A stretch of DNA of 64,000 bases, taken from the NCBI GenBank assembly GCA_040414485.1, contig JBEDUK010000027.1, positions 9,208-73,207 of the forward strand, in the 5' to 3' direction. Both the position numbers and the translations under genes were made by a program. Every line of letters begins with the position of its first letter. Positions within the stretch are counted from its first letter, which is position 1. This document shows, one piece after another, positions 10,518 through 27,429 of the stretch. This stretch comes from Actinomycetota bacterium. Lineage in GTDB: Bacteria; Actinomycetota; UBA4738. Under the pieces are notes generated by a model. The model was not told the origin of the DNA. It ran no database searches and saw only the letters and a list, made by a program, of their open reading frames with translations.

Positions 10518-11822
10518 ATGGCCACGTCCGATGCCGGAGGCTCGCGCCGCCTGCTCGCCCTGCTTCCGCTCCTCCTCGCGGCACTGACGGTGGCCGCCAT
10601 CGCCACGCCCGCGTACGCGGCGCCGGGCGACCTCGACCCGTCGTTCGGCAACAGCGGAAAGGTCAAGACGTCGTTCACGCCCGGCTGGGACAGCGGGTTC
10701 GGCGTGGCGATCCAGAAGGACGGCAAGATTCTCGTGGCGGGCCAGACCGATGGCGACACGTTCGCCGTGGCGCGATATCTGAGCAACGGAAACCTGGATT
10801 CGGCATTCGGCAACGGAGGCCTCAGGACGGTGGCCGGCGTCGGCTCCGGCGACGCCGTGTATGCCACCGCGGTCGCGCTGCAGGGCGACGGCAAGATCCT
10901 GGTCGCGGGGCAGGGAGACGCAGGTGCAGTGCTGGTCCGACTGGAATCGAACGGCACGCTGGACGGCGGGTTCGGCAGCGGAGGCATCGCCTCGGCCGCG
11001 TTCCTCGAACACGGAGCGGGCGCGAACAGCGTCGCCGCGCAGAGCAACGGACGGATCGTGATCGCCGGCTACACCTACAACCAGGCACGGAAGGAATACT
11101 TCGCGATCGCCCGGTTCACCAGTTCCGGCCATCTGGACACCAGCTTCAGCTCGAACGGGATGCAGAGCATCGGATTCGCCTCGGGGGACTCCTGGGCCGG
11201 TTCCGTGCTGATCCAGCCGAGCGATCAGAAGGTCGTCGCGATCGGAACGGTGGAGAACACGGCGAAGGGAACCGCCGCCATCGGCATCCTGAGACTGAAC
11301 ACGGACGGCACGCTCGACCCGACCTTCAGCGGGAACGGCGCGGGAATCTACTCGGACGGCAGCGGCTTCGGCGAGGCCGGCGCGCTCACGAGCGGCGGGA
11401 GCATCATCGCCGCGGGATGGGGGGTCGTGAACGGCAACAGCGACTTCGCACTCATCGAAGTCGGGCCGCTCGGGAATCTGAACGGGAACTTCGGCACCGG
11501 TGGCAAGGTCTTGACGGACTTCGGCACCGACTACGACTACGGCAGCGCCGTCGCCCTGTCGTCCGACGGCAAGATCGTCGTGGCCGGCTCCACGTATCCG
11601 AGCAAGAAGCACTCCTACGACTTCGCGCTGGCCCGCTACCAGTCGAACGGCGCCCTCGACAAGACATTCGGCACGAAGGGTCGGGTCGTCACCTCGTTCG
11701 GCGCCGACGACTCCGGCAACGGCGTCGCGATCCAGAGCGACGGCAAGATCGTCGTTGCCGGGAACACTCAGAAGGACTCCAAGCACACGGCGAAGTTCGC
11801 GATCGCCCGGTACCTCGCCTGA
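10518..11822 (+). CDS. Secreted delta-60 repeat (beta-propeller) protein
   Basis: Signal peptide ending AYA-APGD. Repeated LD.SFG.gG and Q.DGKIvVAG units. GAAGGGAGG RBS before ATG 10518. Confidence 0.85.
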   Translation: MATSDAGGSRRLLALLPLLLAALTVAAIATPAYAAPGDLDPSFGNSGKVKTSFTPGWDSGFGVAIQKDGKILVAGQTDGDTFAVARYLSNGNLDSAFGNGGLRTVAGVGSGDAVYATAVALQGDGKILVAGQGDAGAVLVRLESNGTLDGGFGSGGIASAAFLEHGAGANSVAAQSNGRIVIAGYTYNQARKEYFAIARFTSSGHLDTSFSSNGMQSIGFASGDSWAGSVLIQPSDQKVVAIGTVENTAKGTAAIGILRLNTDGTLDPTFSGNGAGIYSDGSGFGEAGALTSGGSIIAAGWGVVNGNSDFALIEVGPLGNLNGNFGTGGKVLTDFGTDYDYGSAVALSSDGKIVVAGSTYPSKKHSYDFALARYQSNGALDKTFGTKGRVVTSFGADDSGNGVAIQSDGKIVVAGNTQKDSKHTAKFAIARYLA

Positions 11823-11856
11823 CGGCGCATCCGAGCCACTTCCGGCAGACGTTCGG

Positions 11857-12786
11857 TCAGACCTTCAGGAGCAGCGGCGCCGGGATCACTTCGAACGCCG
11901 CTGGCGTGGTTCCGAGCAACTCGCCGTCGGCCTCGATCGGCAGCGCCGGTTCGGCTTCGATCCCGACCCGCGCGGCGGACAGCTCGACGATGTCGGCGTC
12001 GGGGAGGTGCGTGCCCCGGTACACCTTCGGCGTGAACGTGAACGACTGGGACTTCGGACCCTTGAACGCCAGCACCTCGAACTCCCCGTCGTCCGGTACC
12101 GACTTCGGCGACACCTGCATCCCGCCGCCGAAGTACCGGCAGTTCGCCACGACCACGTTGTGGACGCGGCCGCCGAACGCACGACCGTCGACCTCCAGCC
12201 GGATCCGGGCGGGACGGAATCCGGGGAGCACCATCCAGAGCGCCGCCAGGTAGCGCGAACGCCCCGCCGACCGCGGGAGGCGAGCCGCGCGGTCGACCAC
12301 CGCAGCGCCGATCCCGGCCTCCGCGATGTTCGCGAAGAACGCCGTCGCCGGTTCATCCGCCGAATGGTCAACATACGTTACTTTCCCGATGTCGAGCGGC
12401 CTGGTCGCCTCGCCGGTCAGTCGTGCGCACGCCGCCACCGAATCGCCCGGAAGGTCGAAGGTCCGAACGAAGTCAGAACCCGATCCGGCCGCGATCACGC
12501 CCAGGACGGCGCCCTCCCGGCGTGGCCGCCCGTCGGGCGTCAGCATGCCGTTCACCACCTCGTGAATGGTCCCGTCGCCGCCGACGGCGACGATGAACCG
12601 CCCGCCCGCCTCCATCGCGGCCCGCGCCGCCCTCGTCGCGTCGCCGGCGCCGCGCGTGACGGCCATCCCGTAGGCCAGATCCGCGTCGCGAAGGGCGGCT
12701 TCGATCCGCGGCAATGCCGCCGCGACCCGGCCGCGGCCCGCCACCGGGTTCACGATCAGCGTCAACGGTCCGAACGAACTGGCCAT
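11857..12786 (-). CDS. Diacylglycerol-kinase family (YegS/Rv2252-like) lipid kinase
   Basis: IVNPVAG, AVGGDGTIHEVVNG, GSGSDF, NCRYFGGGM, EADGELLG. Confidence 0.9.
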   Translation of the reverse strand: MASSFGPLTLIVNPVAGRGRVAAALPRIEAALRDADLAYGMAVTRGAGDATRAARAAMEAGGRFIVAVGGDGTIHEVVNGMLTPDGRPRREGAVLGVIAAGSGSDFVRTFDLPGDSVAACARLTGEATRPLDIGKVTYVDHSADEPATAFFANIAEAGIGAAVVDRAARLPRSAGRSRYLAALWMVLPGFRPARIRLEVDGRAFGGRVHNVVVANCRYFGGGMQVSPKSVPDDGEFEVLAFKGPKSQSFTFTPKVYRGTHLPDADIVELSAARVGIEAEPALPIEADGELLGTTPAAFEVIPAPLLLKV

Positions 12787-12808
12787 CCCCCGCCCTCCGC
12801 GGCGGACT

Positions 12809-13849
12809 CTAGACGAGGATGCAGGCGGCCTCGTGCCCCGGCGCGGCGCCCTCGGGCACGTGCAACGCGGGGTCGATGCTCGGGCACCGCTCCACCGCCA
12901 CCGGGCATCTCGGGTGGAACCGGCAGCCCGACGGGATGCGGACCGCGTTCGGCGTCTCGCCTCGGAGGATCTCCGGCCGCGACCGGTCCCGCGGATCGCG
13001 CTTCGGCACCACCGAGAGCAGGGCACGCGTGTACGGATGCCGCGGGCTTCGAACGACCTCCTGCGCCGGACCCTCCTCGACGATCCGGCCCAGGTACATC
13101 ACCGCGATCCGGTCGGCGAAGTGCGCCGCCGTGGACAGGTCGTGGGTGATCATCAGGATTCCCATACCGCCGGTTCGGCGCAGACCGTCGAGCAGGCCGA
13201 GGATCTCCGCGCGGACCGAGACGTCGAGCATCGAGACCGGCTCGTCGGCCACCAGCAGCTGCGGCTCCAGCACGAGCGCTGCGGCGATCGCCACGCGCTG
13301 CCGCTGGCCGCCGGACAGTTCGTGCGGGAACCGGTCGACGAACAGATCGGCGGGCGCGAGGCCGGCCCGCTCGAGCGCCTCCACGACGCGCAGCCGCCGT
13401 TCGTTCGCGGAGCCGAGCCCGTGGACCAGCAGCGGCTCCTCGACCGTCTGCAGCACGCGGAACCTCGGATCGAGCGAGTCGTAGGGGTCCTGGTAGATCA
13501 GCTGCATCGAACGCCGCAGCGGCCGGAGGTCGGCGGCTCGAAGGCCGGTCACCTCGCGCCCCTGGAACCGGATCACACCCGAATCTGGTTCGACCAGCCG
13601 CATGACCGCCTGCGCCGTGGTCGTCTTTCCGCAGCCGGACTCTCCGACCAGCGCCACCATCTCGCCGGCGCGGAGCGAGAACGACACACCGTCCACCGCG
13701 CGAGCCATCAGGCGCGGCGCCCGCCTGGCGGCGCCGACGATCCCTCGGGGGATCGGGTACGTGACGACCAGGTCCTCGACCTCGAGCAGCGGTGCCGGCC
13801 CGGCGTCGGCGGGCCGGCCGCCCGACTCGAGCGCGTCCCGAACGCTCAC
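12809..13849 (-). CDS. Oligopeptide/dipeptide ABC transporter ATPase (DppF-like)
   Basis: GESGCGKTT, LSGGQRQR, VADEP, C-terminal GCRFHPRC. GTG overlaps the upstream stop (GTGA). Confidence 0.92.
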   Translation of the reverse strand: MSVRDALESGGRPADAGPAPLLEVEDLVVTYPIPRGIVGAARRAPRLMARAVDGVSFSLRAGEMVALVGESGCGKTTTAQAVMRLVEPDSGVIRFQGREVTGLRAADLRPLRRSMQLIYQDPYDSLDPRFRVLQTVEEPLLVHGLGSANERRLRVVEALERAGLAPADLFVDRFPHELSGGQRQRVAIAAALVLEPQLLVADEPVSMLDVSVRAEILGLLDGLRRTGGMGILMITHDLSTAAHFADRIAVMYLGRIVEEGPAQEVVRSPRHPYTRALLSVVPKRDPRDRSRPEILRGETPNAVRIPSGCRFHPRCPVAVERCPSIDPALHVPEGAAPGHEAACILV

Positions 13850-14823
13850 GAGGCGCTCCGGACCGATGGATCGTTCAGATGACAGCGGGCGAGGTGCGCC
13901 GGCCCGACCGCGAGGGTCTCCGGCGTCACGACCCGGCACGGGTCGAAGGCGGAGTCGCACCGGGGGGCGAACGGGCACCCGACGATCTCGCGGTCAAGGC
14001 GCGGAGGCGTGCCCGGGATCGAAACCACGTCGCCCCGCCCGTACAGGTCGGGCGCCGCCCCGAAGAGCATCCGCGTGTACGGATGACGGGGATCGTGAAA
14101 GAGCGTCTCCATCGCACCCGCCTCGGCGACCGTGCCGGCGTACATCACGGCGGCCCGTTCGCAGACCTGGGCCACGATCAGCAGGTCGTGGGTGACCAAC
14201 AGCAGCGACAGGTCGAGCTCGGCCGTCAATCCGACGAGCAGTTCCAGCACCTGTGCCTGGATCATCACGTCGAGCGCGGTGGTCGGTTCGTCCGCGAGCA
14301 GCACCTTCGGGTTGCACGCGAGCGCCATCGCGATGGCCGCGCGCTGCCGCATGCCGCCGGAGAACTCGTGCGGATACGAGCGCGCCCGCGCCGCCGGGAT
14401 GCCGACCAGTTCCAGGAGCTCGCGGGCACGGCGTTCGGCTGCCTTGCCTTCGGCAACCTCGTGCAGCTCCATCGGCTCGACGATCTGGTCCACGATGCGC
14501 CGGACGGGATTGAACGCGTTCATGGCGCCCTGGAACACCATGGCCACGTCGCGCCACCGGTGCTGTCGCATGCTCTCCTCGCCGCCGGCGAGGATCTCCC
14601 GGCCGCCCAGGACGATGCTTCCTGCGACCGACGCCGATGGGGGCAGGAGGCCCATGAGGGCGAGGATCGCCGTCGTCTTTCCGCACCCCGATTCCCCGAT
14701 CAGGCCCATCCGTTCGCCCGCGCCGAGGTCGAACCCGATCCCCTGAACCGCGTGGAGCGAACGGCCACCCTGAAGGTCGAACCACACGTGCAGGTCGCGG
14801 ACCTGGAGGTACGGCTCGATCAA
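13846..14823 (-). CDS. Oligopeptide/dipeptide ABC transporter ATPase (DppD-like)
   Basis: GESGCGKTT, FSGGMRQR, LADEPTTALD, GCPFAPRC. TTG start overlaps the permease stop (TTGA). Confidence 0.9.
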   Translation of the reverse strand: MIEPYLQVRDLHVWFDLQGGRSLHAVQGIGFDLGAGERMGLIGESGCGKTTAILALMGLLPPSASVAGSIVLGGREILAGGEESMRQHRWRDVAMVFQGAMNAFNPVRRIVDQIVEPMELHEVAEGKAAERRARELLELVGIPAARARSYPHEFSGGMRQRAAIAMALACNPKVLLADEPTTALDVMIQAQVLELLVGLTAELDLSLLLVTHDLLIVAQVCERAAVMYAGTVAEAGAMETLFHDPRHPYTRMLFGAAPDLYGRGDVVSIPGTPPRLDREIVGCPFAPRCDSAFDPCRVVTPETLAVGPAHLARCHLNDPSVRSAS

Positions 14824-15863
14824 GGCGCCGCCTTCTCGCGCTTCGACCCCTTCGACCCCTTCGACGCCTTCGACGCCTCGGCGTGAATCGCAGCGTCCCT
14901 GGCGGCGCGGTCTCCAAGCGGCGCCGGCAGGACCCGGAACCGGCGCACCGAAACGTGCCCGACGCGCAGCCGTGGGTTCAGCGCATCCTCCATCGACTGC
15001 CCGAGCATCGTGCAGGCCAGCACCACGAGCGCCACGCACACGCCCGGCGGGACGATCGCCCACCAGGCGCCGTTCAGGACGGCGTCGCCCCTGAACGCGT
15101 TCTCGATCAGCTTGCCCCATGAGATGAGGCTCGGGTCGCCCAGGCCGAGGAACGTGATGTACGTCTCGGCGAAGATCGCGATCGCCACCATCAGGACCGT
15201 GTTGGCGATGATGAGCGGCGTCACCTGCGGGAGGATGTGGCGCCAGATCAGCCGGTTGTTCCCGGCCCCCACCGCGCGCACCCGTTTGACGTACGTTCGC
15301 TCCCGGACGCTCTTGGCCTGCGCGCGAACCAGCCGGGCGGTGCTCGTCCAGTAGATGATCCCGATGATCAGGATGATGTTTCCCAGCCGCCGCCCGAACA
15401 GGGCGGCGATCACGATCATCAGCGGGATGTCGGGGATCACCAGCACGTAGTCGGTGATCCGCATCAGCACGTTGTCGGTCCGGCCGCCGAAGAAGCCCGA
15501 GGCCAGGCCCACCGTGCCGCCGATGATCATCGCCACGAAGGCCGCCGCGAACCCGACGATCAACGAGACGCGCGACCCGGCGATGATCAGCGAGAGCATG
15601 TCGGCGCCCGAGTCGTCGGTACCGAGCCAATGGGCCGCCGAGGGCGGCTCGAACACCGCGCCGGTCTTCGCCCGCGGGTCGTACGGCTCGAGCCACGGCG
15701 CGAAGATGGCGATGAGGACGAACGCGACCAGGACGCAGAGCCCCACGATGGTGGCCGGCTTCCGCAGCGCGGGCGAACGAAGGAACCGGAACCGCGACCG
15801 GGTCGTCACGGTCTCGTGAAGCGCCGCGTCCTCCGCGAGCGCGGTGGGAGGGGTCCCGCTCAC
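14820..15863 (-). CDS. Oligopeptide ABC permease (DppC-like)
   Basis: HWLGTD, GSRVSL, hydrophobic helices, RHILP, ITFLGLG, SWG. Confidence 0.92.
   Translation of the reverse strand: MSGTPPTALAEDAALHETVTTRSRFRFLRSPALRKPATIVGLCVLVAFVLIAIFAPWLEPYDPRAKTGAVFEPPSAAHWLGTDDSGADMLSLIIAGSRVSLIVGFAAAFVAMIIGGTVGLASGFFGGRTDNVLMRITDYVLVIPDIPLMIVIAALFGRRLGNIILIIGIIYWTSTARLVRAQAKSVRERTYVKRVRAVGAGNNRLIWRHILPQVTPLIIANTVLMVAIAIFAETYITFLGLGDPSLISWGKLIENAFRGDAVLNGAWWAIVPPGVCVALVVLACTMLGQSMEDALNPRLRVGHVSVRRFRVLPAPLGDRAARDAAIHAEASKASKGSKGSKREKAAP
14842..14877. repeat. 9-bp tandem repeat x4 in the permease tail
   Basis: ttcgacccc ttcgacccc ttcgacgcc ttcgacgcc, encoding the ASK/GSK repeat (ASKASKGSKGSK). Confidence 0.85.
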
Positions 15864-15891
15864 GGGTTCACCCCCCGGCTCGTCGCGCGGT

Positions 15892-16866
15892 TCATTCCTC
15901 CACCACCCGCGGGTCGAGCTTCACGTAGAGCAGGTCCGCGATCAGGTTGAAGAAGATCACCGACAGGGTGAGCAGCAGGAAGATCGCCTGGAGCGTCGGC
16001 CAGTCACGCTGATCGATCGCCTCCACGGTGGCCAGCCCGATCCCCGGATACGAGAACACGTACTCGATCGTGATGGCCCCGCCGATGATGAAGCCGAGCG
16101 AGAGCGCCACCAGCGTCACGATCGGCAGGAGCGCGTTTCGGAACCCATGGGTGCGCACGATGGTGAGCGTCTTCAGACCCTTGGCGCGCGCCGTGAGGAT
16201 GTAGTCCTCACCGAGCGTCTCGAGCATCGCCGAGCGAACGATCAGCGCGTATTCGCCGTACAGCACCAGCCCGAGCGTCAGCGCGGGCAGCACCATGTGC
16301 TTGAGGCGGTCGGCCGCGACGGTGGCGAACGACGGCGTGGTCAGCACGCCGAGCGTCGGGTCCTTGATCCCGGAGGTGGGGAGCCCCACGGCGGAGGCCA
16401 CGAACAGCACCATCAGCAGGCCGAGCCATTGCGTCGGCATCGAATAGAACCCCAGCGCCGTGTACAGGCCGGCCTTGTCCGTGAAGGTGTCGCGGCGCCA
16501 CGCGGAGAGCACCCCGACGATGATGCCGAACACGATCGAGAACAGCGTGCCGAGGGCGATCATGGGCACGGTGTTCCAGATGTCCGGCCACAGTTCGGTC
16601 AATACCGACTGCTGCGTGCGCAGCGAGCGCCCCATGTCGCCGTGCAGCAGGTTCCCGATGTACAGCAGGTACTGCTGATACAGCGGCCTGTCCAGGCCGA
16701 GCTCACGGCGTTCGATCTCCTTGAACTGCACCGTGCACTGCCGGCATCGCAGGGCCGAGACGGCGTCGCCGGGAACGGCGCGGAACAGCACGAAGTTGAG
16801 GGTGACCGCGATGAAGACCGTGACGATCGCGAACGCGATCCGTTTGATGATGTAGTCGGCCTTCAC
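15892..16866 (-). CDS. Oligopeptide ABC permease (DppB-like)
   Basis: LGLDRPLYQQY, GDMGRSL, HMVLPALTL, EDYILTARAKG, LLYVKLDPRV. Confidence 0.93.
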   Translation of the reverse strand: MKADYIIKRIAFAIVTVFIAVTLNFVLFRAVPGDAVSALRCRQCTVQFKEIERRELGLDRPLYQQYLLYIGNLLHGDMGRSLRTQQSVLTELWPDIWNTVPMIALGTLFSIVFGIIVGVLSAWRRDTFTDKAGLYTALGFYSMPTQWLGLLMVLFVASAVGLPTSGIKDPTLGVLTTPSFATVAADRLKHMVLPALTLGLVLYGEYALIVRSAMLETLGEDYILTARAKGLKTLTIVRTHGFRNALLPIVTLVALSLGFIIGGAITIEYVFSYPGIGLATVEAIDQRDWPTLQAIFLLLTLSVIFFNLIADLLYVKLDPRVVEE

Positions 16867-16918
16867 CGCCCGACTCCGCTCCTCCCGTCCGGTCGGTCAC
16901 CCACCCGGCCGCTCACGT

Positions 16919-18682
16919 TCATCCGGTCTGGTGCGGGCCCGTGTAGAAGACCTTCGAATAGGCGCTGAGATTCGAGTCGATGTTCGTCCACAGCTTCGTG
17001 TGCGCGTCGAGCAGTTCCTCGTTGACCAGCTGCGTGTAGCAGAACTGGTCGTAGACCATCTGCTGCATCCGGTTGACGAGGTCCTGCCGCGCGGTCGCGT
17101 CCGGGGTGGCGCCCTGCTGCTTGTAGAGCTGGTCGTACTGCGGGTTGTCCCAGCCGGTGTCGCTCCAGGAGCACCACTGCGCCTTCGTCACGACCGAGAG
17201 CATGAAGTCCGGGTCGACGTAGCCGGCCCAGTCCCACATGGCGATGTCGAACTTCGAATACCCCGTCGACGTCGAGGGGTCGCAGTTGTCGTCCGTCTCC
17301 AGCGCGTAGGTCGCGGTCGAGTCGCCCCCCACCTTCTGTGTGACCTGGACGCCCGCGGCGGCGAACCCGTCCCTGACGATCTCGAACTCCCGATCGACGT
17401 TGAAGTCGGTCGAGGTCGGCGTCAGGATCTCGTACTTCATCGGGTGCGCCGGCTGGGCGTACTGGCCGGTGGTGGCCGGAACCATCCGGATGTCGTCGGA
17501 GCCCTTCGTGTAGCCGAGCTGGTCGAGCATCGCGTTGCCTGCCGCGCAGTCGTACTGCAGCGGCCCGAGGTTCTTGTTCTCCATCGGCGAGATGTGCCCG
17601 ACGATGCTCTCGACCGTGTCCGCGTAGCCGCTGAAGACCACGTCGATGATGCGCTGGCGGTCGATGCACATCGACAGGGCCTTCTTGACGCGGGGATCGA
17701 GCAGCTCGCGATTCTGGAGCTTGCGAGGGTTCGAATTCCACGTCACGTTCGTCGTCTCCGAGCCCGCGATCTTGTCGATGATCAGGCTCGTGTCCTTCTC
17801 GACGGCCTTGACGGCGTCGAACGGCACCTGGTCGACGAAGTCCAGCTGGCCGTGCTCCAGGTCTGCCAGCATGGAGTCGGCGTTGGTGTAGTAGGTGAGC
17901 GTGACCGCCTGGGCGTGGGACTTCGGGCCGTAGAAGTTTGGCAGCGGGATGAAGACCGTGGTGCCCTTCTTGACATACGTCTTGATGTTGTAGGCGCCCC
18001 CGGCCACCATCGGCAGGTGCTGCTCGGGGTGGAACGTCTTGAGCCCCTTGCCGTTGCCCGCCGCGAGCGGCGCCCACGCGTGCTCCGGCAGGATGAACAG
18101 CTGCTCCAGCTGGGCGAGCGCGTTGCCGACCGGCGCGTCGTAGGTGATGACGAGCGTGTTCGGGTCGCTCGCAACGGCGCTCTTGACGTGGCCAAGGGCG
18201 GGCGCCATCTCGGCCGTCGGTCCATTCTGGAACTTGAGCGTCGTCGCGATCGTCCAGGCAGCGTCGTCGGCGGTGATCGGCTTCCCGTCCGACCACGTCG
18301 CGCCCGCGATCAGGTGGAAGGTGTAGACCTTGCCGTCGGGTGAGACGTCCCAGGATTTCGCCCAGTCGCCTTCGATCTGGAACCCGTCCGCCTTGCTGTA
18401 CTTGTACTGGACCAGCTGCGGGTAGACCATGATCATGGCGTTCGTCGCCTGGCTCTCGATGTAGTTGTACGGGTTCAGGGAGTCGATGTAGTCGATCGTC
18501 CCCACTCGGAAGATCCCGCCCTCCTTGACCGGCGCGGACGACGACGAGCCGGGGGTCGAGTTCGCGCCCGAGGGAGGCGACGCCTGGCCGCCGCTCTTGC
18601 ACGCGGCCCCCAGGAGGGCGACGGCTGTGAGGACGCCGAGCGCCTTCGCCCATCGAACGCTTCGATCCGAACGGTGTTCCAT
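16919..18682 (-). CDS. ABC substrate-binding lipoprotein, family 5
   Basis: Lipobox LGAAC, SLNPY, WDVSPDGKVYTFHL, TWSDGKPITADD. Confidence 0.92.
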   Translation of the reverse strand: MEHRSDRSVRWAKALGVLTAVALLGAACKSGGQASPPSGANSTPGSSSSAPVKEGGIFRVGTIDYIDSLNPYNYIESQATNAMIMVYPQLVQYKYSKADGFQIEGDWAKSWDVSPDGKVYTFHLIAGATWSDGKPITADDAAWTIATTLKFQNGPTAEMAPALGHVKSAVASDPNTLVITYDAPVGNALAQLEQLFILPEHAWAPLAAGNGKGLKTFHPEQHLPMVAGGAYNIKTYVKKGTTVFIPLPNFYGPKSHAQAVTLTYYTNADSMLADLEHGQLDFVDQVPFDAVKAVEKDTSLIIDKIAGSETTNVTWNSNPRKLQNRELLDPRVKKALSMCIDRQRIIDVVFSGYADTVESIVGHISPMENKNLGPLQYDCAAGNAMLDQLGYTKGSDDIRMVPATTGQYAQPAHPMKYEILTPTSTDFNVDREFEIVRDGFAAAGVQVTQKVGGDSTATYALETDDNCDPSTSTGYSKFDIAMWDWAGYVDPDFMLSVVTKAQWCSWSDTGWDNPQYDQLYKQQGATPDATARQDLVNRMQQMVYDQFCYTQLVNEELLDAHTKLWTNIDSNLSAYSKVFYTGPHQTG

Positions 18683-18734
18683 AGATCGCCCCCGGTTTCG
18701 TCAACGAGCCGACCCGAACGGCTCGCGTCGCCTC

Positions 18735-18763
18735 ATCCTGAACGGCGGTTCAGGGTTTGTCAT
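18735..18763 (-). promoter_or_regulatory. Putative promoter of the peptide ABC operon overlapped by a 7-bp inverted repeat
   Basis: ATGACA-N17-CAGGAT on the minus strand; CCTGAAC-ggcg-GTTCAGG at 18737-18754. Confidence 0.5.
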
Positions 18764-18819
18764 CTTCGGTGTACGGCAGCGGAGCGCTTCCGGGTGGCCT
18801 CGTCGTGGCGCGGATCGGA

Positions 18820-19998
18820 TCAGATCAGGAACGAGCGCGGGCTGTCCGGGTCCGTGAGCGCGGGCCGATCCGGTTCGAACCCGCCGATCTCATGGCGCGT
18901 CCGGCCGTCCACGGCCAGGTCCGCCAGGATGCTGCCGAACAACGACGCGAACTTGAAACCGTGCGCGGCTCCCAGGCCGACCAGCACGTTCGGATGCCCG
19001 GGCACCGCGCCGATCACGAAGTCGCGGTCGGGCGGCATGGTGTACAGGCACGTCTTGACGAGCAACTCGGGGCCGCGCGCGCTCGGAAGGTGCTCGTCGA
19101 CGAACGACCGCACGCGCGCGAGGGCGTCCGGGTCCGGGTCGAACGTCCTCGTGGCGGGCGTGACCTCGCGGCCTCCGACGTCCTGCGCGACCTTCGGCCC
19201 GGGCTCCCCGAACGCCGGGAACCCGTAGAACGACGGATCGTCCATCCAGATCCAGACCGGGAACCGTTCGGGCGCGAACGCGTCGGGGTTCGGCGCGTCG
19301 AAGTACACGACCTGCTCCAGCGTGATCGTCAGCGGAAGGGTGACGCCGAAAGGACCGAGGAGGTCGTTCGTCCATGCATCGGCCGCGAGGATCACGGTCC
19401 CGCACCTGACCGGGGTGCCGTCTTCGACGTGGACCTCGAGCTCTCCGTCGGCGTCGCGGATCCGGGTGACGCGGCTGTTGCCGCGAAGTTCCGCGCCGTG
19501 GTCTTCGGCGAGACGGCGGTGCGCGTTGTTGCACCTGGACGCCGGTGCGATGCCCGTATCCGATTGGTAAAGTACCCTTACCGATTCGTCGAGCCGCCAC
19601 TGGGGCCACCGGCGCATCGCCTCGGCCGCGTCCAGTTCGTCGAACGGAACCTCGGCCGCACGCATGCTCTCCCGGTAGTCGTCGATGGGTATCGCCGCGC
19701 CCGCGGGGAACAGATCAAGGCCGCCGGTCCGAACGATCAGGGGTTCACCGAGATCGTCTTCGACCTCCGACCAGGCGCGGTACGCCTCGCCGGCCAGCCG
19801 CACGTACCGCGGCGTGTGATACGAGCGGCGGATGATGCGCGAATGGTCCTCGGAGGCGCCGTTGGAATGGCCGATCTCGAACTGCTCCAGGCCGAGCACT
19901 CCGCCCGTTCCGCCGGTGCGACGGGCCAGCCGGTACGCGGCCGCGCTCCCGATCCCTCCCAGTCCGACGACGACGTGGTCGAACTCCGCGCGGGTCAC
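18820..19998 (-). CDS. Monomeric sarcosine / N-methyl-amino-acid oxidase family flavoenzyme (SolA-like)
   Basis: VVVGLGGIG, SRIIRRSY, KTCLYT (covalent-FAD Cys position), HGFKFAS. GTG overlaps the upstream stop. Confidence 0.88.
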   Translation of the reverse strand: MTRAEFDHVVVGLGGIGSAAAYRLARRTGGTGGVLGLEQFEIGHSNGASEDHSRIIRRSYHTPRYVRLAGEAYRAWSEVEDDLGEPLIVRTGGLDLFPAGAAIPIDDYRESMRAAEVPFDELDAAEAMRRWPQWRLDESVRVLYQSDTGIAPASRCNNAHRRLAEDHGAELRGNSRVTRIRDADGELEVHVEDGTPVRCGTVILAADAWTNDLLGPFGVTLPLTITLEQVVYFDAPNPDAFAPERFPVWIWMDDPSFYGFPAFGEPGPKVAQDVGGREVTPATRTFDPDPDALARVRSFVDEHLPSARGPELLVKTCLYTMPPDRDFVIGAVPGHPNVLVGLGAAHGFKFASLFGSILADLAVDGRTRHEIGGFEPDRPALTDPDSPRSFLI

Positions 19999-21038
19999 GT
20001 TTCGGCCGTCTCGGCCGAGCCCGCCGTCTCGGCTGCGCCGGAGGAGTCGCCGACGCCGTCGTGCCCGTAGTACTCGAAGGCCGACATGGGCTTGCCCGTC
20101 CGGCTTCGCCACTCCCGCTCCGCGGGCTCCCCTTTGCCGAGCGCCCTCGCCATGGCCTTCACGTGCTCGGCGACCGCGCCGCAGCACGAGCCGATGTAGC
20201 CGACGCCGCCATCCTCTGCCGAGCCGGCGAAGGCAGCCATCTCGCCCCGCGTTACCTGCATGGGGTCGAGCGAATAGGGAAAGGCGTCGAACGCGGTGAA
20301 GTCGGGCCTGTCGTTCGTGGTCCGGTACGCGACCGGCTGCGCGGCCACGTGGCACGCGACCGCCCGTCGCATGTCGAGCGCGATCGGCATCTGCTGTTCG
20401 GGGCCGTTCAGGCAGTTCACACCCACCACGTCAGCGCCCGCCTGCTCGAGCCGAGCGGCGCACTCGGAGGGCGTGAGCCCTTCGTAGGAACGCGGTTCGG
20501 GCTGCTCGAAGCACATCGTGGCCATGACCGGGAGGGCGGTTCGCGTCGCCCGTTCGACGAACAGGAGCGCCTCGCCGAGCCACGAGAACGTCTCACCGAT
20601 CCAGAAGTCGGGCGGACCGGCCTCCAGTTGATCCGAGAGCTGACGGTCGAACAACCCGCGGACCCGGTCCGCCGACGCCGCGTCGTCCGGCTCGAACGCC
20701 CAGGTGAGCGACAGGTTGCCCGCGACCAGGGCGTCGCCCTCGGACGCGACCTTCCTGGCAACCTGCACGGCGGTCCGGTTGATGTCGTCGACCCGGTCGC
20801 CGAGCCCGACGGTGGCGAGCTTGTCGTCGCTGGCGTAGAAGGTCATGGTCTGGAGCACCTCGGCGCCGGCGAGCAGGAACTCGCGATGCAACTGGGCCAG
20901 GGCGTCGGGGTGTTCGATCACCACCTCCGGCGTGAACGGACCGGCCTGGACGTACCCACGCTTCTCCAGCTCGAGCAGATAGCCGCCGTCGCCCAGCACG
21001 GGACCGTCGGCCAGCCGCTCCAGGATGCCCTTCGCCAC
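19995..21038 (-). CDS. Homocysteine S-methyltransferase family, BHMT-like
   Basis: GILERL...GDGGY..ELEKRGYVQAGPFTPE...QLHREFL.AG...TFYAS closely follows the BHMT N-terminus. Zn ligands GVNC and GSCCG. Confidence 0.9.
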   Translation of the reverse strand: MAKGILERLADGPVLGDGGYLLELEKRGYVQAGPFTPEVVIEHPDALAQLHREFLLAGAEVLQTMTFYASDDKLATVGLGDRVDDINRTAVQVARKVASEGDALVAGNLSLTWAFEPDDAASADRVRGLFDRQLSDQLEAGPPDFWIGETFSWLGEALLFVERATRTALPVMATMCFEQPEPRSYEGLTPSECAARLEQAGADVVGVNCLNGPEQQMPIALDMRRAVACHVAAQPVAYRTTNDRPDFTAFDAFPYSLDPMQVTRGEMAAFAGSAEDGGVGYIGSCCGAVAEHVKAMARALGKGEPAEREWRSRTGKPMSAFEYYGHDGVGDSSGAAETAGSAETAET

Positions 21039-21064
21039 GTCGCCCCCTCGTCCGGGGCGCCATG

Positions 21065-22999
21065 CTACCCGGCGCCGCGAGGGATCCGTTCCTGCCATTC
21101 GCGCTCGCGGATGCGCTCGTCGTTCAACCACAGCTCCCGGCGGTAGCGGTAGTCGAATGCCGACTCGTCGCTCGAGATGTCGAGGAGGCCGATCCAGCGG
21201 ATCCGGCGGTCGCCCGCGCTCACGTTCACGGTCGTCTCAGACTCGCCGTGGACGCGCGCGTCGGCCGGATCGAGGTCGTCCACCCGCCATTCGAGCGACT
21301 CCCGGTAGTCCGACCGTCCCCAGGGCGCTTCGGACCACGAGGATCCGCTCCACCGGACTGCTGCCTTCGTCCCGTCCCGGCTGGCCTGCCACTCGCCGGG
21401 AAGCATCTCGCCCCCGCTCTTCCACCCGGACGCCTGGACATGGGGTTCGGGCTCGTCGAAGCGTGGGCTGGCGCGTTCCGCGAACGGCACGACCGGAAGT
21501 TCGAGCCTCGATCCCGAGTCACCCCCGACCGTGAGCGACGCCGTCATGGGGTCAGGAGTGGGCCAGATCATCGGCCACAGTGCGTTCGACACGGCGAGCC
21601 GGATGCGGTGGCCGCGCTCGAAGGTCCACGAGGTCACGTGAAGGTCCAACGTCACCGGACCCTCGCCCTGGGCGGGTGATCCCGCGCCCGTCACCAGCAC
21701 GACGGACCCGTCCGGGGCGACGTCACACAGCCGTGCGAACCAGTTGGCGGATGGCGCGTCCACGGTCGCGTCGAGCGCCACGCGAGGAAATCCGAGGATT
21801 TCCATTTCTTGGTCGAGCGGCGCCGAATCGTAAATCAGGCTGACCGCATCGAGCGGAGCCTGGTCCGGCTGGAGGTCTCCCCACCACATCCCCGCCTCGA
21901 GGCCGGCCGACGGCACGTAGGCCAACGTGTGCTCCGTCCGGACGCCCGCGTCGCCTCCCAGCGCGTTGTCGCCGCGCAGGAGCAGCGCCACGCTCCTGGT
22001 TCGCTCGGGCGGCCATCCTTCCTCGAGCCGCCATTCGCCCGGGATCTCCACCACTTCACGTCCCGGTGGGTGCCATCGCCGCACGTAGACGGCGAGTTTC
22101 GGTTCGTCCTCCACGCCGTTCGGCGCGTCGCGCAGCCACCGGTCGAACCACCGGACGACCTCGGCCCGATGCTCGAACGCAGGCCCCGGCGATCCCCGAT
22201 GCGGGAACGAATGGTCGTGCGGGGCGAGGATCCCCTTCACCGGCGCTGACCCGCAGTGCTCGAGCATGCGCGGAACGCTGTCCCGGTAGCCGTCGTACCA
22301 CCCACCGATCAGGAGCGCCGGCACGCGGAGCCGGTCGTACTCCGGCCTGAGTGAGGCGCAGCGCCAGAATTCCCCGTCGCGCTGGTGGCGTAACCACGCC
22401 AATTTCCACGGCGGCTGATCGAAGCGGGCTTGCAGGATCGCTTCGTCGAACGAATAATCCGGTGCGCCGCTGCGCGCGTTCTCCAGGTCGATCAGCACGT
22501 CGTACTCGTCGACGTGGAACATCCCGTCGATGTTGTGGATGTCGTCGCGGAACAGATCGTCGGACGCGTCGATCGCCACGATCGCCCTGAGCGCCTCCGG
22601 CGTCTGCCGGCGGGACGCCATCTGGATCGCGTTGAAGCCGCCCCAGGAGATCCCCCACAGGGCGACCGCGCCCGTGCACCAGGGCTGCCGGGCGAGCCAT
22701 TCGATTACAACGTCGCCGTCGGCATGCTCCACGTCGCTGTATTCGCGGTCCGGCAGCACGCCCTGGCTGCGGCCCGTGCCGCGGATGTCGACCTTCACGC
22801 ACGCGTACCCGCGCCCGGTCATGTACGAGTACAGGTCCCAGTCGCGCTCGAACAGCCCGTCGTCCTTGCGGTAGGGCAGGTACTCCAGAATGACGGGAAG
22901 CCGGTCGCCGGCGCCGTCTCCCTGGGGCCGGAAGCGATTCGCCGCCAGACTGACACCGTCCGGCATCGGGATCCAGATCTCGTCGAGCCGCATGCTCAT
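21065..22999 (-). CDS. CocE/NonD family serine hydrolase (peptidase S15-like)
   Basis: PVILEYLPYRKDD, VDIRGTGRSQG, WGISWGG nucleophile elbow, GWYDGY, C-terminal PepX-like domain. ATGA overlap with pfkB. Confidence 0.88.
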   Translation of the reverse strand: MSMRLDEIWIPMPDGVSLAANRFRPQGDGAGDRLPVILEYLPYRKDDGLFERDWDLYSYMTGRGYACVKVDIRGTGRSQGVLPDREYSDVEHADGDVVIEWLARQPWCTGAVALWGISWGGFNAIQMASRRQTPEALRAIVAIDASDDLFRDDIHNIDGMFHVDEYDVLIDLENARSGAPDYSFDEAILQARFDQPPWKLAWLRHQRDGEFWRCASLRPEYDRLRVPALLIGGWYDGYRDSVPRMLEHCGSAPVKGILAPHDHSFPHRGSPGPAFEHRAEVVRWFDRWLRDAPNGVEDEPKLAVYVRRWHPPGREVVEIPGEWRLEEGWPPERTRSVALLLRGDNALGGDAGVRTEHTLAYVPSAGLEAGMWWGDLQPDQAPLDAVSLIYDSAPLDQEMEILGFPRVALDATVDAPSANWFARLCDVAPDGSVVLVTGAGSPAQGEGPVTLDLHVTSWTFERGHRIRLAVSNALWPMIWPTPDPMTASLTVGGDSGSRLELPVVPFAERASPRFDEPEPHVQASGWKSGGEMLPGEWQASRDGTKAAVRWSGSSWSEAPWGRSDYRESLEWRVDDLDPADARVHGESETTVNVSAGDRRIRWIGLLDISSDESAFDYRYRRELWLNDERIREREWQERIPRGAG

Positions 23000-23961
23000 G
23001 GTTCCGGCCGGGGGGCGGGCACGAGATCCCCGGGATCCGGCGCCGTGTCGATCGCCCCGATCCACTTCGGCCGCGGGCCACGGGCCACCGCGGCCAGCGC
23101 GCCGGCCCGGTTGCCCGTAGCGCACGCCGCCTCGAGCGAGGCGCCCCGCAGACGGGCCGCGATGAACGCCGCGTCGAACGCGTCGCCGGCACCCGTCGAA
23201 TCGCCGCCCGAGGCTCGGCCGGCGGCCGGGACGCAGGTGATGACACTCGCGTCGATCAGGACGCAGCCGTCGGCGCCGGCCTTGACGACGAGGGCCTCGG
23301 TCGCGTTCGCGCGGGCCGCAGCGAGCGCCGCCGGTTCGCTCGTGCCGAAGCACGCTTCGCATTCGGCTGCGTTGCCGAGCACCACGACTCGGTCGAGCGC
23401 CGTGGAGAGGCTCCCCGCTCGGCCGCCCTCCAGGTCGACCGAACAAGGGATCCCGCGCGCGATCGCTCCCGCAAGGAGCGCCTCGCACCGGCCGGCCATG
23501 CGCTCGTCCAGGAGCACGTAGCCGGAGACGTGCACCCAGGACGGCGCGGCCGCCTGGCCGGCCAGCAGCGCGAGCGGATCGAATTCGAATTGCTCCGACG
23601 CCCCCCTCGTTCCCACCATCGTGCGCTCACCGTCCGGTTCGACCATCACCACCATGGATCCGGTCGTCGCGCCCGGCACGCACATGACGCCGGCGGTGTC
23701 GACACCGCCGGCCCGCAGTTCGGAGACGATGCGGTCGCCCAGCGCATCCTCCCCCACGGCGCTCACCAGCGTCACGTCCACACCGAGGGCGACGAGGTCC
23801 AGCGCGACGTTCGCGCCGACGCCGCTGACATGGACGGACGCGTCGCGGAGCACGACGTTCTCTCCCGGCTCGGGCATGCGTTCGACTCCGCCCAGGGTCA
23901 CGATCATGAGGTCGCCCACCACCAGGATTCGATGGCGCGCGATGGGCTCGGCGCGGCTCAC
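22996..23961 (-). CDS. PfkB family carbohydrate kinase
   Basis: GVGANVA, VVKAGADG, DSTGAGDAFDAAF. Confidence 0.9.
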   Translation of the reverse strand: MSRAEPIARHRILVVGDLMIVTLGGVERMPEPGENVVLRDASVHVSGVGANVALDLVALGVDVTLVSAVGEDALGDRIVSELRAGGVDTAGVMCVPGATTGSMVVMVEPDGERTMVGTRGASEQFEFDPLALLAGQAAAPSWVHVSGYVLLDERMAGRCEALLAGAIARGIPCSVDLEGGRAGSLSTALDRVVVLGNAAECEACFGTSEPAALAAARANATEALVVKAGADGCVLIDASVITCVPAAGRASGGDSTGAGDAFDAAFIAARLRGASLEAACATGNRAGALAAVARGPRPKWIGAIDTAPDPGDLVPAPRPEP

Positions 23962-24776
23962 CCGCGTGCGTCTCGAACGCCGCCGACGACGGCCATGAAC
24001 CGCTCGACCATGGTCCGGTCGACCCGCTTCGACAGATCGCCGCCGGGCCGGAACGCCGACGCGACGACCGCGCCGTCGGCGGTCGTGAGCATCGCGACCG
24101 CGTTGGACGGGCCGACGCCGCTGCCCAGGACCACGTCCGCACCGAGGCCACGCAGCGCCCTGACGTCACCCAGGTCGGCGGCCGAACCCGTCCGGGCGCC
24201 GCTCACCACCAGCACGTCCGCGCCGCCGCGTTCCAGCATGTCCAGCGCAGACTCCCGGATGGGCCGCTGCAGCAACGGTGCCGCGTGCTTGACGTGCACG
24301 TCCGCGAGGATCGCCACCGACTCCGCTCCCATCAGGCGGCGTGCCCGCAGCAGTTCGGCCGCCGCACCTTCGATCAAACCCTGATCGGTCACGAACGCCT
24401 CGGTCAGGACGTTCACGCGGATGAACGAACCGCCGTGCGCATGCGCGATGGCAAGCGACGCGCGCGCCGCGTTCCGAAGGACGTTCACGCCCAGCGGCAG
24501 CGAAGGCGCGGCCGCCCGCACCTCGCCGGCCACCCTGGCCATCGACGCGACGGTCTCGGGCGGGACCTCGCCGGCGAAGAACGGCGCGTCGCCCATGTTC
24601 TCCAGGATGAGGCCGTCGACGCCGCCGGCGGCCAGTGACCGCGCGTCCTCGACCGCAGCATCCACCACGGCGTCCACGCTCCCACCGAACCCGGGCGCGC
24701 CGGGAAGCGGCAGCAACTGGACCGGCCCGATGATGGGCTTCGGCGCGGCGAACAGATCGGCGAGGCGCACCGCCAT
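23958..24776 (-). CDS. BtpA/SgcQ family TIM-barrel protein
   Basis: LLPLPGAP, DGLILENMGDAPF, GVNVLRN, ADVHVKHA, VSGARTG. Confidence 0.9.
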   Translation of the reverse strand: MAVRLADLFAAPKPIIGPVQLLPLPGAPGFGGSVDAVVDAAVEDARSLAAGGVDGLILENMGDAPFFAGEVPPETVASMARVAGEVRAAAPSLPLGVNVLRNAARASLAIAHAHGGSFIRVNVLTEAFVTDQGLIEGAAAELLRARRLMGAESVAILADVHVKHAAPLLQRPIRESALDMLERGGADVLVVSGARTGSAADLGDVRALRGLGADVVLGSGVGPSNAVAMLTTADGAVVASAFRPGGDLSKRVDRTMVERFMAVVGGVRDARG

Positions 24777-24825
24777 GGCAGGGCGAAGCCTACCGGCCCG
24801 CCGGCCGAGCAGGCCGCGAGCGTGC

Positions 24826-26154
24826 CTATCGGGCGCCTGCGTCCGGGGTCCGCGGGATGACGAACCAGAACGTGGCGCCCGTGGCTTCGTCTCCGGCGCC
24901 TTCGTCTGCGACGGCGGCGCCGCCCCGGTTGCGGGCGCCGATCGTGCCTCCGTGGGCCTCGACGAGCGACTTCGCGATCGCGAGCCCCAGGCCCGCTCCG
25001 CGCGATTCGGGCGACTTCGCGAACCGGTCGAACACGCTGTCCAGGCGGTCGGGGGGGATCCCGCTCCCGGTGTCGGAGACGGTGAACCGAACCCCGGCGC
25101 CCGGGTCGGCCGGGCCGGCCGGCTCGGCCGCTCCCACAGGTTCGACCCCGACCCTCACGCTCCCTCCGGGTGGCGTGTGCCGGATGGCGTTCGCGATGAG
25201 GTTCGACAGGACTTCGCGGATCCTGACCCGGTCCACCTCGATCTCGCCCGCCGGGCCGCCTGGCCCGACGGCCAGCGCGACCCTCGCGGCCGCCGCTTCC
25301 GGCCCGTGCGCCGCGACCGCGTCCTCGGCCAGTTCGCGCGGATCGGTCGGCTCCAGCCGGAGCCTCAGCGCGCCGCTCTCCGCCATCGCCAGCATCGAGA
25401 GGTCCTCGAGCAGACGGGACATCACGCGCGTCTCCTCGAGCGCCGGCTCCAGGTGCCCGGCATCGGCGACGTAGACGCCGTCGAGGATCCCTTCGATGTT
25501 CGCCTGGATGATCGTGAGCGGCGTCCGCAGCTCGTGCGCCACGTCGGCGAAGAGCTGACGACGGACGTGCTCGTTCGCCTCGAGCCGTTCGGCCATCGCG
25601 TTGAACGACCGGGCGAGCGACCGCACCTCGCGCGGGCCGCCCGGCTGGACGCGCGCCGAATAATCGCCGGACGCGACGCGCTCGGCCGCGCCCATCACGT
25701 CGTCGATCGGGCGCGCGGTGCGCCTGGCTCCGCGCGCCGCGATGACCACCAGCACGATGATCACCACGAAGATGGCGAAGCCGAACGGCGGGCCGCCTGT
25801 CCACCGATGGGGCGGGTTCGCGCCGGAGCCATGCCAGATGGTGCTGCCGATCCAGAACAGGAACCCGCCGGCGACGAACGCCAGGCCGAACAGCGCCAGA
25901 AGGAACAGGGCGATCCTGCGGGCGAAGTGCCTGGGAACGCCCTGCCAGCCCTCACGGCCCTGCGGAGGCCACGGTTCGGATTCGGGCCACCACGGAGGGG
26001 GCCCGCCGCGCCAGGGGGGACCGCCGCGGTAGCGCCGGCCGCGCGGGGGCGAAGGCGATGGTGCGGCCGGCTCCGCCGCCGGCTCCGGCTCCGACCCCGG
26101 CTTCGACACCGGTGCCGGGTCCCCTTCGGCCCTGTCCCCCGGATCCTCAGTCAT
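24826..26154 (-). CDS. HAMP-domain sensor histidine kinase (BaeS-like)
   Basis: Two TM helices, HAMP, ADVAHELRTPL, NLIANAIRH, DTGSGI, GLGLAI. Confidence 0.93.
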   Translation of the reverse strand: MTEDPGDRAEGDPAPVSKPGSEPEPAAEPAAPSPSPPRGRRYRGGPPWRGGPPPWWPESEPWPPQGREGWQGVPRHFARRIALFLLALFGLAFVAGGFLFWIGSTIWHGSGANPPHRWTGGPPFGFAIFVVIIVLVVIAARGARRTARPIDDVMGAAERVASGDYSARVQPGGPREVRSLARSFNAMAERLEANEHVRRQLFADVAHELRTPLTIIQANIEGILDGVYVADAGHLEPALEETRVMSRLLEDLSMLAMAESGALRLRLEPTDPRELAEDAVAAHGPEAAAARVALAVGPGGPAGEIEVDRVRIREVLSNLIANAIRHTPPGGSVRVGVEPVGAAEPAGPADPGAGVRFTVSDTGSGIPPDRLDSVFDRFAKSPESRGAGLGLAIAKSLVEAHGGTIGARNRGGAAVADEGAGDEATGATFWFVIPRTPDAGAR

Positions 26155-26839
26155 CGGCGAACCGGTACCCCACGCCGTGAACGGTCAGCACGTACCGCGG
26201 GCGCTTCGGATCGGGCTCGAGCTTGCGCCGGATGTTCTTGACGTGGGCGTCGATGGCGCGCTCGTACGACTCGAAGGCGACCCCATGGACTGCGTCGAGC
26301 AGCTGCGATCTGGTGAACACGCGGCCGGGCTGCGCCGCCAGCGTGGCGACGAGCTCGAACTCCGTCGGCGTCAGTTGCACGTTCCTGCCGTCGACCGACG
26401 CCCGCATGCGCGTCATGTCGAGCGTCACACCCGCCGCGCGGATGACCTCGGGCCTGGCCACGGAGACCACTTCGCTGCGCCGAAGGACCGCGCGAACGCG
26501 AGCCACCAACTCCTTCGGGCTGAACGGCTTGACCACGTAGTCGTCGGCGCCCAGTTCCAGCCCGACGATCCGGTCCGATTCGTCCGCGCGCGCCGTCAGC
26601 ATCACGATCGGGACGTTCGACGAACGCCGGATCTCCCGCGTGACATCGAGCCCGTCGCGCCCGGGAAGGCCGAGGTCCAGGACGATCAGGTCCGGCTTCG
26701 CCGAACGCGCGCTCGACAGGCCCGCGTCGCCATCGGCCGCCACGATCACGTCGTAGCCCGCGTGCTCGAGGTAGTCGCGGGCGACCCGGGCGATCGCCAT
26801 CTCGTCCTCAACGACCAGGATCGTCTTCATTCGCGTCAC
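26147..26839 (-). CDS. OmpR-family response regulator
   Basis: ILVVEDE, VLDLGLP, GADDYVVKPF, LTPTEFEL, TVHGVGYRF. Alternative start ATG 26830. Confidence 0.95.
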   Translation of the reverse strand: MTRMKTILVVEDEMAIARVARDYLEHAGYDVIVAADGDAGLSSARSAKPDLIVLDLGLPGRDGLDVTREIRRSSNVPIVMLTARADESDRIVGLELGADDYVVKPFSPKELVARVRAVLRRSEVVSVARPEVIRAAGVTLDMTRMRASVDGRNVQLTPTEFELVATLAAQPGRVFTRSQLLDAVHGVAFESYERAIDAHVKNIRRKLEPDPKRPRYVLTVHGVGYRFADD

Positions 26840-26939
26840 CTACCTGATCCAACGTCGGTCCGTCTGTCAGCGTGGCGGACGGCAGCGGCGGTGGCAAGGC
26901 TTGTCGCCCGCCACCGCCGCTGCCGCCGTCGGTCCGTGC

Positions 26940-27335: not shown

Positions 27336-27413
27336 CTCGTACCACTCCCCTCGTCGCTCTCGGCGATCCCCCGAGGGATCGCTCATCGACACTCCCGAGG
27401 CTCGGCGCGCGCC

Positions 27414-27429
27414 GTGAACGAGCTGTGAA
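27414..27429 (-). promoter_or_regulatory. Candidate OmpR-type tandem binding site
   Basis: TTCAC-agctcg-TTCAC on the minus strand (11-bp period), about 80 nt upstream of the operon. Confidence 0.4.

Follow-up and report, generated by a model that had tools for sequence, protein, structure and literature searches.

In soil, betaines serve as major osmolytes and as major nitrogen and methyl-group carriers. The route described for glycine betaine in mammals, and proposed for SAR11, consists of betaine-homocysteine S-methyltransferase (BHMT), a dimethylglycine (DMG) dehydrogenase or oxidase, and sarcosine oxidase. A 2025 study proposes that SAR11 alone uses a stand-alone BHMT of the human type for glycine betaine demethylation, and it reinterprets the S. 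meliloti-type "BHMT" as MtgE, one module of a methionine synthase that is split (PMC12478193). Here we analyzed a 64,000-nucleotide stretch of a contig from an uncultured member of the Actinomycetota (hereafter the window), in which a BHMT homologue (HMT) and a flavin adenine dinucleotide (FAD) amine oxidase of the MSOX family (DAO) stand in one same-strand gene run with a CocE-type serine hydrolase, a Dpp/Opp-type importer with its solute-binding protein (SBP), and several further genes. Our preferred reading, held at slightly better than even confidence, is that at least three same-strand units make up this run as a mosaic: an eight-gene module for uptake, hydrolysis and demethylation (CocE, HMT, DAO and five importer genes), a pair of BtpA and PfkB genes, and bystanders.

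The likeness to the glycine betaine route lies in the succession of enzymes, since a single-subunit, Zn-dependent BHMT of human type is followed by an MSOX-family oxidase, and in eight relatives a gene of the DMG dehydrogenase (DMGDH) type comes directly after HMT. The locus differs from this route in that CocE and a peptide-type importer are linked to it, in the replacement of two BHMT residues (Phe and Thr for Trp44 and Tyr160) and one MSOX residue (Asp for His269) throughout the window's family, and in lacking a DMGDH-type gene. This last absence, already reported by a first-pass annotation made from the sequence alone, holds for the window in a tblastn search with the DMGDH-like neighbor of a related locus (L039), which gave no match. 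The hosts are uncultured soil Actinomycetota, unlike the SAR11 case (PMC12478193). The same annotation had not recognized the gene combination as a described pathway and, as far as we found, the eight-gene unit matches none.

Conservation of the CocE, HMT, oxidase and importer genes

Genes were called from open reading frames (ORFs), third-position GC, and profile searches against Pfam and NCBIfam, and junctions were read from the sequence itself; the genes present, their catalytic residues, the patterns of conservation and the palindrome shared among loci are direct observations. Relatives of HMT came from a contig scan, in which 196 candidate stretches encode such a relative, and which gave 80 species-level loci, nearly all labeled as Actinomycetota metagenome-assembled genomes. 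These loci (given here as L numbers, as are other related loci) were checked by tblastn with all 13 window proteins. Those with enough flanking DNA were taken as usable, which left 75 with enough downstream DNA to read the direct partner of HMT and 61 usable for CocE; Dpp permeases were counted over 84 HMT loci. Relatives of BtpA came from a metagenome scan, which gave 80 loci with a BtpA identity of at most 60%.

The comparison revealed that CocE, HMT, DAO and the SBP or Dpp genes are co-conserved, whereas BtpA, PfkB and a lipid kinase, which the first-pass annotation had joined to them, are not conserved with them outside collinear relatives. CocE is linked to HMT in the window and in L167, L085, L086, L002, L005, L172 and L173. 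In L167 (CocE 76% identical to the window), the order is response regulator, histidine kinase, BtpA, PfkB, a GlcD-like FAD oxidase, CocE, HMT, DAO, Dpp genes and lipid kinase. This locus and the window are collinear for about 20 kb, with identities of 63-94%, from hom and thrC through a 61-aa ORF, a P450 gene and a 133-aa ORF as far as the lipid kinase; as collinearity reaches far past the cluster, the shared order is inherited and says nothing on function. L085 (HMT 91%) has CocE, HMT-DAO, the five Dpp genes and the lipid kinase, and L086 (HMT 87%) has CocE, HMT-DAO, SBP, PermB and PermC, where the contig ends; both thus retain the window order for the part that their contigs span. In both, an opposite-strand gene lies between CocE and HMT (a BNR-repeat gene at 2937-4847 of L085 and a 204-aa ORF at 8534-9148 of L086), so CocE is not always co-transcribed with HMT-DAO.

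Other relatives keep the same functions in other arrangements. L173 (CocE 55%, HMT 71%, DAO 65%) carries CocE-SBP-PermB-PermC-D-F-HMT-DAO on one strand, with opposite-strand genes on both flanks. In L002 and L172 (CocE 64-66%), the SBP gene is divergent from CocE-HMT-DAO, L005 (CocE 56%, HMT 87%) has CocE-HMT-DAO only, and L048 (CocE about 50-63% in three aligned pieces, HMT 75%) combines CocE and HMT with a convergent Dpp system. One assembly, GCA_037024515.1, has two CocE-HMT-DAO loci, L002 (HMT 81%, with a divergent SBP only) and L086 (HMT 87%, with a Dpp operon); either the two loci are paralogs or the bin is mixed.

The CocE-linked HMTs group in a single clade (support 100/96, six rows); with L167, L172 and L173 added, the clade holds eight HMTs (SH-like support 91), and L048 falls outside. 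Within one HMT sub-clade, CocE, HMT, DAO and the SBP or Dpp genes thus occur in three gene orders, and the SBPs of the different orders are mutually only 26-41% identical, which marks them as distinct, non-orthologous lineages within family 5. In the other HMT loci, a Dpp-type permease occurs in 1-3 of 84, a background of about 1-4%. Because the linkage outlasts both the change of gene order and the replacement of the SBP type, against so low a background, these neighborhoods provide good evidence that CocE, HMT, DAO and the family-5 importer work together.

A palindrome, TGAAC-N4-GTTCA, adds to the picture. It lies in the 137-nt gap between DAO and SBP, about 57 nt before the SBP gene starts, and it is the sole exact copy in the window. 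The palindrome is kept at the same place in L167 (14228), L085 (7274) and L086 (12236), and it recurs in the short divergent region between SBP and CocE of L002 (7941, exact) and L172 (9955, one mismatch), where it could govern SBP and CocE-HMT-DAO in both directions. Exact sites number 25 in the 1.22 Mb of the 80 HMT loci, against about 0.2 expected from a base-composition estimate, and none occurs in 0.60 Mb of BtpA loci. At least 15 of the sites precede, by no more than about 60 nt, the predicted start of a gene for a 458-aa GSA-aminomutase-like class-III aminotransferase; in L001, the single locus annotated in detail, the aminotransferase cluster also has an ornithine aminotransferase. This distribution suggests that the palindrome is probably the operator of a lineage-wide regulator, and its half-sites resemble the cores of the ARG-box and the LexA-box. 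A scan of positions 11500-27500 in this window of about 70% G+C found no promoter-like site and found terminator-like sites at chance level, and an Rfam search of 11000-27500 at E<=1 returned nothing credible and no known riboswitch. The sequencing runs that hold the locus are soil DNA metagenomes only, with no RNA run among them.

Enzymes and importer of the proposed eight-gene module

The best solved relative of HMT is vertebrate BHMT1 (226 bits, residues 3-301), with the N-terminal domains of MetH at no more than 95 bits. Against PRK07534, the NCBIfam model of the S. meliloti-type "BHMT", it scores 101 bits, below the cut-off of 338; judged by these scores, HMT is of the human/SAR11-like type and not of the S. 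meliloti type. Its GVNC and GSCCG align with the human Zn-site motifs, and GDGGY and GETF likewise align with human motifs. Equivalents of Cys217, Cys299 and Cys300, as well as D26, Tyr77, Glu159 and the DGG motif, do not vary among 87 homologues, and we take DGG and Glu159 to bind homocysteine, as in BHMT structures. In all 87 homologues, human Trp44 is Phe and Tyr160 is Thr, two positions that we take to be betaine contacts. Across the 80 species-level loci, HMT is 69-87% identical to that of the window, nearly all at 73% or above, and a protein collection holds thousands of matches. HMT is predicted to transfer a methyl group from a betaine to homocysteine, the donor being glycine betaine or a dimethyl betaine.

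The gene that follows HMT points to the fate of the other product. Among the 75 loci, the next gene encodes an MSOX-like DAO in 32, a DMGDH-like protein in eight and neither in 35. Clustering of neighboring ORFs identified the DMGDH-like partner as an 836-aa DAO+FAO_M+GCV_T protein, which is the architecture of DMG dehydrogenase/oxidase; its gene is directly 3' of HMT in L013, L034, L036, L039, L046, L047, L053 and L071, and was also seen in L084. The two partner types never co-occur within 10 kb in HMT loci. That they share one position behind HMT fits an N-methyl product of HMT and suggests that the oxidase takes this product.

The first-pass annotation had called the oxidase SolA. This label agrees with the NCBIfam model for MTOX, whose cut-off is reached (NF008425, 289 bits against 257), but by pairwise score to solved structures the closest relative is Bacillus MSOX (190 bits) rather than E. 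coli MTOX (127 bits), so the name "SolA" is probably wrong. The window protein resembles E. coli SolA and Bacillus MSOX in fold and size, and the equivalents of Cys315 (the site of covalent FAD attachment), Lys265, Tyr317, Arg49, Arg52, His345 and Lys348 in MSOX numbering are invariant in 35 HMT-linked homologues aligned to 1el5/1l9c. It differs from them in that MSOX His269 is Asp in all 35, that position 45 is Glu, Gln or His, and that the MSOX model TIGR01377 (soxA_mon) gives 224 bits, below its cut-off of 480. Arg52 and Lys348 bind the substrate carboxylate in this family, and retention of this clamp suggests that the substrate is an N-substituted amino acid whose carboxylate is free. We also considered the oxidase as an amadoriase with PfkB as a fructosamine kinase, and dropped this candidate since BtpA-PfkB and the oxidase are not conserved together; the kept MSOX carboxylate clamp and the place behind BHMT also speak against it.

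The CocE protein shares its domains, an alpha/beta-hydrolase and a PepX_C jelly-roll, with Rhodococcus CocE and the S15 X-Pro dipeptidyl peptidases, and its Ser-Asp-His triad and oxyanion Tyr align with those of Rhodococcus CocE (GISWGG, GWYDG, HDHS, LPYRK). It differs from the Rhodococcus cocaine esterase in a pairwise score of only 76 bits and in about 160 extra C-terminal residues, which have no Pfam match. The protein belongs to a widespread orthologue group of 650 aa, with members at 50% identity or more in Acidobacteriota and other phyla, in which we looked for a characterized member and found none. In a further locus (L168, 1200-7968), a CocE homologue (54%) stands behind a TetR gene and is divergent from an amine oxidase, a 390-aa DAO and a Rieske oxygenase of the ring-hydroxylating type with an AraC regulator, which makes it another pairing of this CocE group with enzymes of the amine or N-demethylation type.

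The importer comprises an SBP_bac_5 protein, two permeases and two oligo_HPY ATPases. It is thus like the Dpp/Opp/Nik importers of family 5 in its five-gene architecture, its oligo_HPY ATPases and its lipoprotein SBP, which has the lipobox LLGAAC and is 88% identical to the SBP of L167. It differs from them in that its proteins stay below every NCBIfam equivalog cut-off and that the closest solved SBP is AapF, at 83 bits. The alignment of the SBP to DppA ends before the region that we take to hold the contacts to the dipeptide termini.

From this set of genes, we infer a substrate, an order of reactions and co-transcription of the module along the following lines. The lipoprotein SBP and its ABC system would import a small peptide-like or ester/amide conjugate, and the CocE-type serine hydrolase would cleave it. 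The freed betaine, whether glycine betaine or a dimethyl compound like proline betaine, would give one methyl group to homocysteine via BHMT, yielding methionine. The MSOX-like oxidase would then act on the BHMT product itself and strip the remaining N-methyl group or groups, releasing the free amino acid, formaldehyde and H2O2. Our best guess for the substrate is a conjugate of a betaine or an N-methyl amino acid. Given the DMGDH-type partners in relatives, glycine betaine would be the conservative guess for the betaine; for a dimethyl betaine, proline betaine for example, the two enzymes at hand would be exactly those required, and the family-wide Phe44 and Thr160 in HMT, together with Asp269 in the oxidase, make a non-glycine substrate conceivable. 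A more specific version, in which this is a soil Actinomycetota operon that scavenges a conjugated betaine or N-methyl amino acid and whose Asp269 MSOX-type oxidase replaces DMGDH, acting on DMG or an N-methylproline-like cyclic substrate, is offered only tentatively.

Layout of the run and genes outside the proposed module

The eleven consecutive minus-strand genes listed by the first-pass annotation, with their families, were all borne out by the ORF list, third-position GC and profiles, but the same-strand run is in fact 13 genes long, with a response regulator and a histidine kinase ahead of btpA (Table 1). The 4-nt overlaps that it had reported can be read in the sequence (GTGA for btpA/pfkB, ATGA for pfkB/cocE, GTGA for HMT/DAO), and so can the spacing of 26 nt between cocE and HMT. 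Further 4-nt overlaps join response regulator and histidine kinase (ATGA), PermC and DppD (TTGA), and DppD and DppF (GTGA), and the histidine kinase ends 49 nt upstream of btpA. Overlaps of this kind are so common in the run that they are weak evidence for shared function.

Table 1. Genes of the same-strand run and the candidate operator, in window coordinates.
Feature	Coordinates	Strand	Evidence and placement
CocE/NonD-family (S15) serine hydrolase, 644 aa	21065..22999	-	TIGR00976 208 bits (cut-off 66); core module
Animal-type betaine-homocysteine S-methyltransferase homologue (HMT), 347 aa	19995..21038	-	Vertebrate BHMT1 match; core module
MSOX-family FAD amine oxidase (DAO), 392 aa	18820..19998	-	MSOX match; core module
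Palindrome TGAAC-N4-GTTCA, candidate operator	18739..18752		In the DAO-SBP gap
Family-5 solute-binding lipoprotein (SBP_bac_5)	16919..18682	-	PF00496 194 bits; core module
Dpp/Opp-type permease B	15892..16866	-	Profiles; 94% identity to L167
Dpp/Opp-type permease C	14820..15863	-	Profiles; 92% identity to L167
oligo_HPY ABC ATPase D	13846..14823	-	Start TTG at 14823; 93% identity to L167
oligo_HPY ABC ATPase F	12809..13849	-	Start GTG at 13849, picked via L167; 86% identity to L167
BtpA/SgcQ-family TIM barrel	23958..24776	-	PF03437 257 bits; separate module adjoining the core
PfkB-family sugar kinase	22996..23961	-	PF00294 145 bits; pairs with BtpA, outside the core
YegS/DAGK-family lipid kinase	11857..12786	-	TIGR00147 144 bits (cut-off 119); neighbor only
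OmpR-type response regulator	26147..26839	-	Pfam label from the collinear L167 gene, 93% identical; neighbor
Histidine kinase	24826..26154	-	Pfam label from the collinear L167 gene, 80% identical; neighbor

The BtpA and PfkB genes resemble the recurrent BtpA/SgcQ-PfkB pairs, a kind that takes in SgcQ of the E. coli sgc operon and cyanobacterial BtpA, in the TIGR00259 barrel (247 bits against a cut-off of 153) and in the 4-nt overlap with PfkB. Window BtpA differs from cyanobacterial BtpA in falling under the cut-off of the photosystem-I BtpA equivalog (236 bits, below 400), and PfkB reaches no equivalog model. An AlphaFold2 model of BtpA gives a (beta/alpha)8 barrel at a predicted local distance difference test (pLDDT) score of 94.8, whose nearest folds, at template-modeling (TM) scores of 0.5-0.6, are TrpA, thiamin-phosphate synthase, MJ1099, ribulose-phosphate epimerase, NanE and GGGP synthase; a search by sequence for relatives of solved structure found none. 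By its model, BtpA is a phosphate-binding barrel without a close solved relative. In the library searched, we found no useful literature on BtpA/SgcQ function.

A PfkB gene is directly downstream of BtpA in L167, L087 and L088. The latter two are the nearest outside relatives of BtpA (58-60% identity, 57-59% G+C); there, PfkB overlaps BtpA by 4 nt, and the other neighbors are unrelated to the window cluster. Most of the distant BtpA homologues (51% identity or less; L100, L125, L129 and about 20 more) come immediately after RNase III and a 214-aa Cys-containing protein, with no sugar kinase beside them. None of the 80 HMT loci holds BtpA, PfkB or the lipid kinase, none of the 80 BtpA loci holds CocE, HMT, DAO or the Dpp system, and BtpA and PfkB are likewise missing from the L002, L005, L172 and L173 loci. 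We infer that BtpA-PfkB is an independent, recurrent pair of a kinase and a phosphate-binding barrel that would act on some sugar phosphate.

The lipid kinase is syntenic only in L167 and L085 and is missing from the L173, L172, L002 and L005 loci; it and the two-component system are neighbors that owe their place solely to recent shared ancestry. The 61-aa ORF that separates thrC from the P450 gene (28827-29009, minus strand) has a counterpart of 80% identity at the same position in L167, which supports a real gene. The GlcD-like FAD-linked oxidase of L167 (471 aa, 8589-10004) sits between pfkB and cocE with 4-nt overlaps on both sides, and L085 begins with a C-terminal fragment of an FAD oxidase (3-866) directly upstream of CocE. 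The window has no trace of this gene, and pfkB overlaps cocE directly at 22996-22999.

Competing readings and significance

Several observations weigh against reading the eight genes as one functional module. The CocE-linked arrangements come mostly from one HMT clade, so they represent few independent events, about 3-4. The palindrome between DAO and SBP, together with the cocE/pfkB overlap, means that enzymes and importer are possibly transcribed separately in the window. Since the presumed betaine contacts (Trp44 and Tyr160) and MSOX His269 are all replaced, known specificities cannot simply be transferred. The CocE-linked HMT clade shows no active-site change against the rest of the family, with position 321 as the one near-diagnostic position, so CocE and Dpp mark no new HMT specificity. 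The best solved relative of the SBP, AapF (7kz8), scores only 83 bits, and family-5 SBPs are not known to bind betaines. Caution is due with any neighborhood inference of this kind, as shared function does not follow from close spacing and 4-nt overlaps in high-GC genomes.

Best placed among the alternatives is the view that only HMT and DAO form a functional unit, for ordinary demethylation of glycine betaine and sarcosine, and that CocE and Dpp are a generic peptide uptake and peptidase set adjacent by chance. It would explain why CocE occurs in just two of the 61 usable HMT loci and Dpp permeases are rare there, why the HMT active site has no clade-specific change, and why CocE homologues (54-57% identity) also stand in unrelated contexts (L169, L170), and it agrees with the classical handling of peptides by S15 enzymes and Dpp systems. 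We nevertheless regard it as doubtful, if worth keeping in view, because the linkage outlasts rearrangement and replacement of the SBP type, the genes of L173 form one strand-bounded operon, and SBP and CocE-HMT-DAO have a candidate operator in common in L002 and L172.

The model of the first-pass annotation, a single eleven-gene pathway in which PfkB and BtpA handle a sugar moiety of the conjugate, is improbable as a whole, although part of it survives. Its link between importer, CocE and the two demethylating enzymes is supported by the three gene orders, the non-orthologous SBPs and the palindrome; the membership of BtpA and PfkB is not, given that neither gene set occurs in the 80 loci of the other and that BtpA and PfkB are absent from L002, L005, L172 and L173. 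Tight packing, the ATGA overlap of pfkB and cocE, and the same order in L167, with a GlcD-like FAD oxidase added there and an FAD-oxidase fragment before CocE in L085, speak for the longer pathway, but L167 is collinear far past the cluster (hom, thrC, P450), so that its order reflects descent, the 4-nt overlaps are frequent here (RR/HK, PermC/D, D/F), and L173 is a self-contained eight-gene unit without BtpA-PfkB. Finally, that HMT mainly makes methionine from a sulfonium donor such as S-methylmethionine while the oxidase acts on an unrelated amine is unlikely, even with Phe and Thr at the presumed betaine contacts and 35 of 75 loci without either partner, because an N-methyl-amino-acid oxidase or a DMGDH type lies directly downstream in 40 of the 75, which fits an N-methyl product and not a thioether.

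The mosaic reading, with its eight-gene module, bears on the distribution of betaine metabolism. A human-type BHMT is highly conserved in 80 species-level genomes of soil Actinomycetota, whereas its stand-alone use was proposed for SAR11 only. It has three partner wirings: an MSOX-like oxidase in some loci, a DMGDH-like enzyme in others, and, as the third, the oxidase joined by CocE and an importer. If the eight-gene unit does act on a conjugate, it would be a new entry route into betaine and one-carbon metabolism, and it would give the widespread 650-aa CocE/NonD group its first physiological role. If the Asp269 oxidase does the job of DMGDH, MSOX-type enzymes would gain a new substrate class, and the use of a stand-alone BHMT would extend beyond SAR11.

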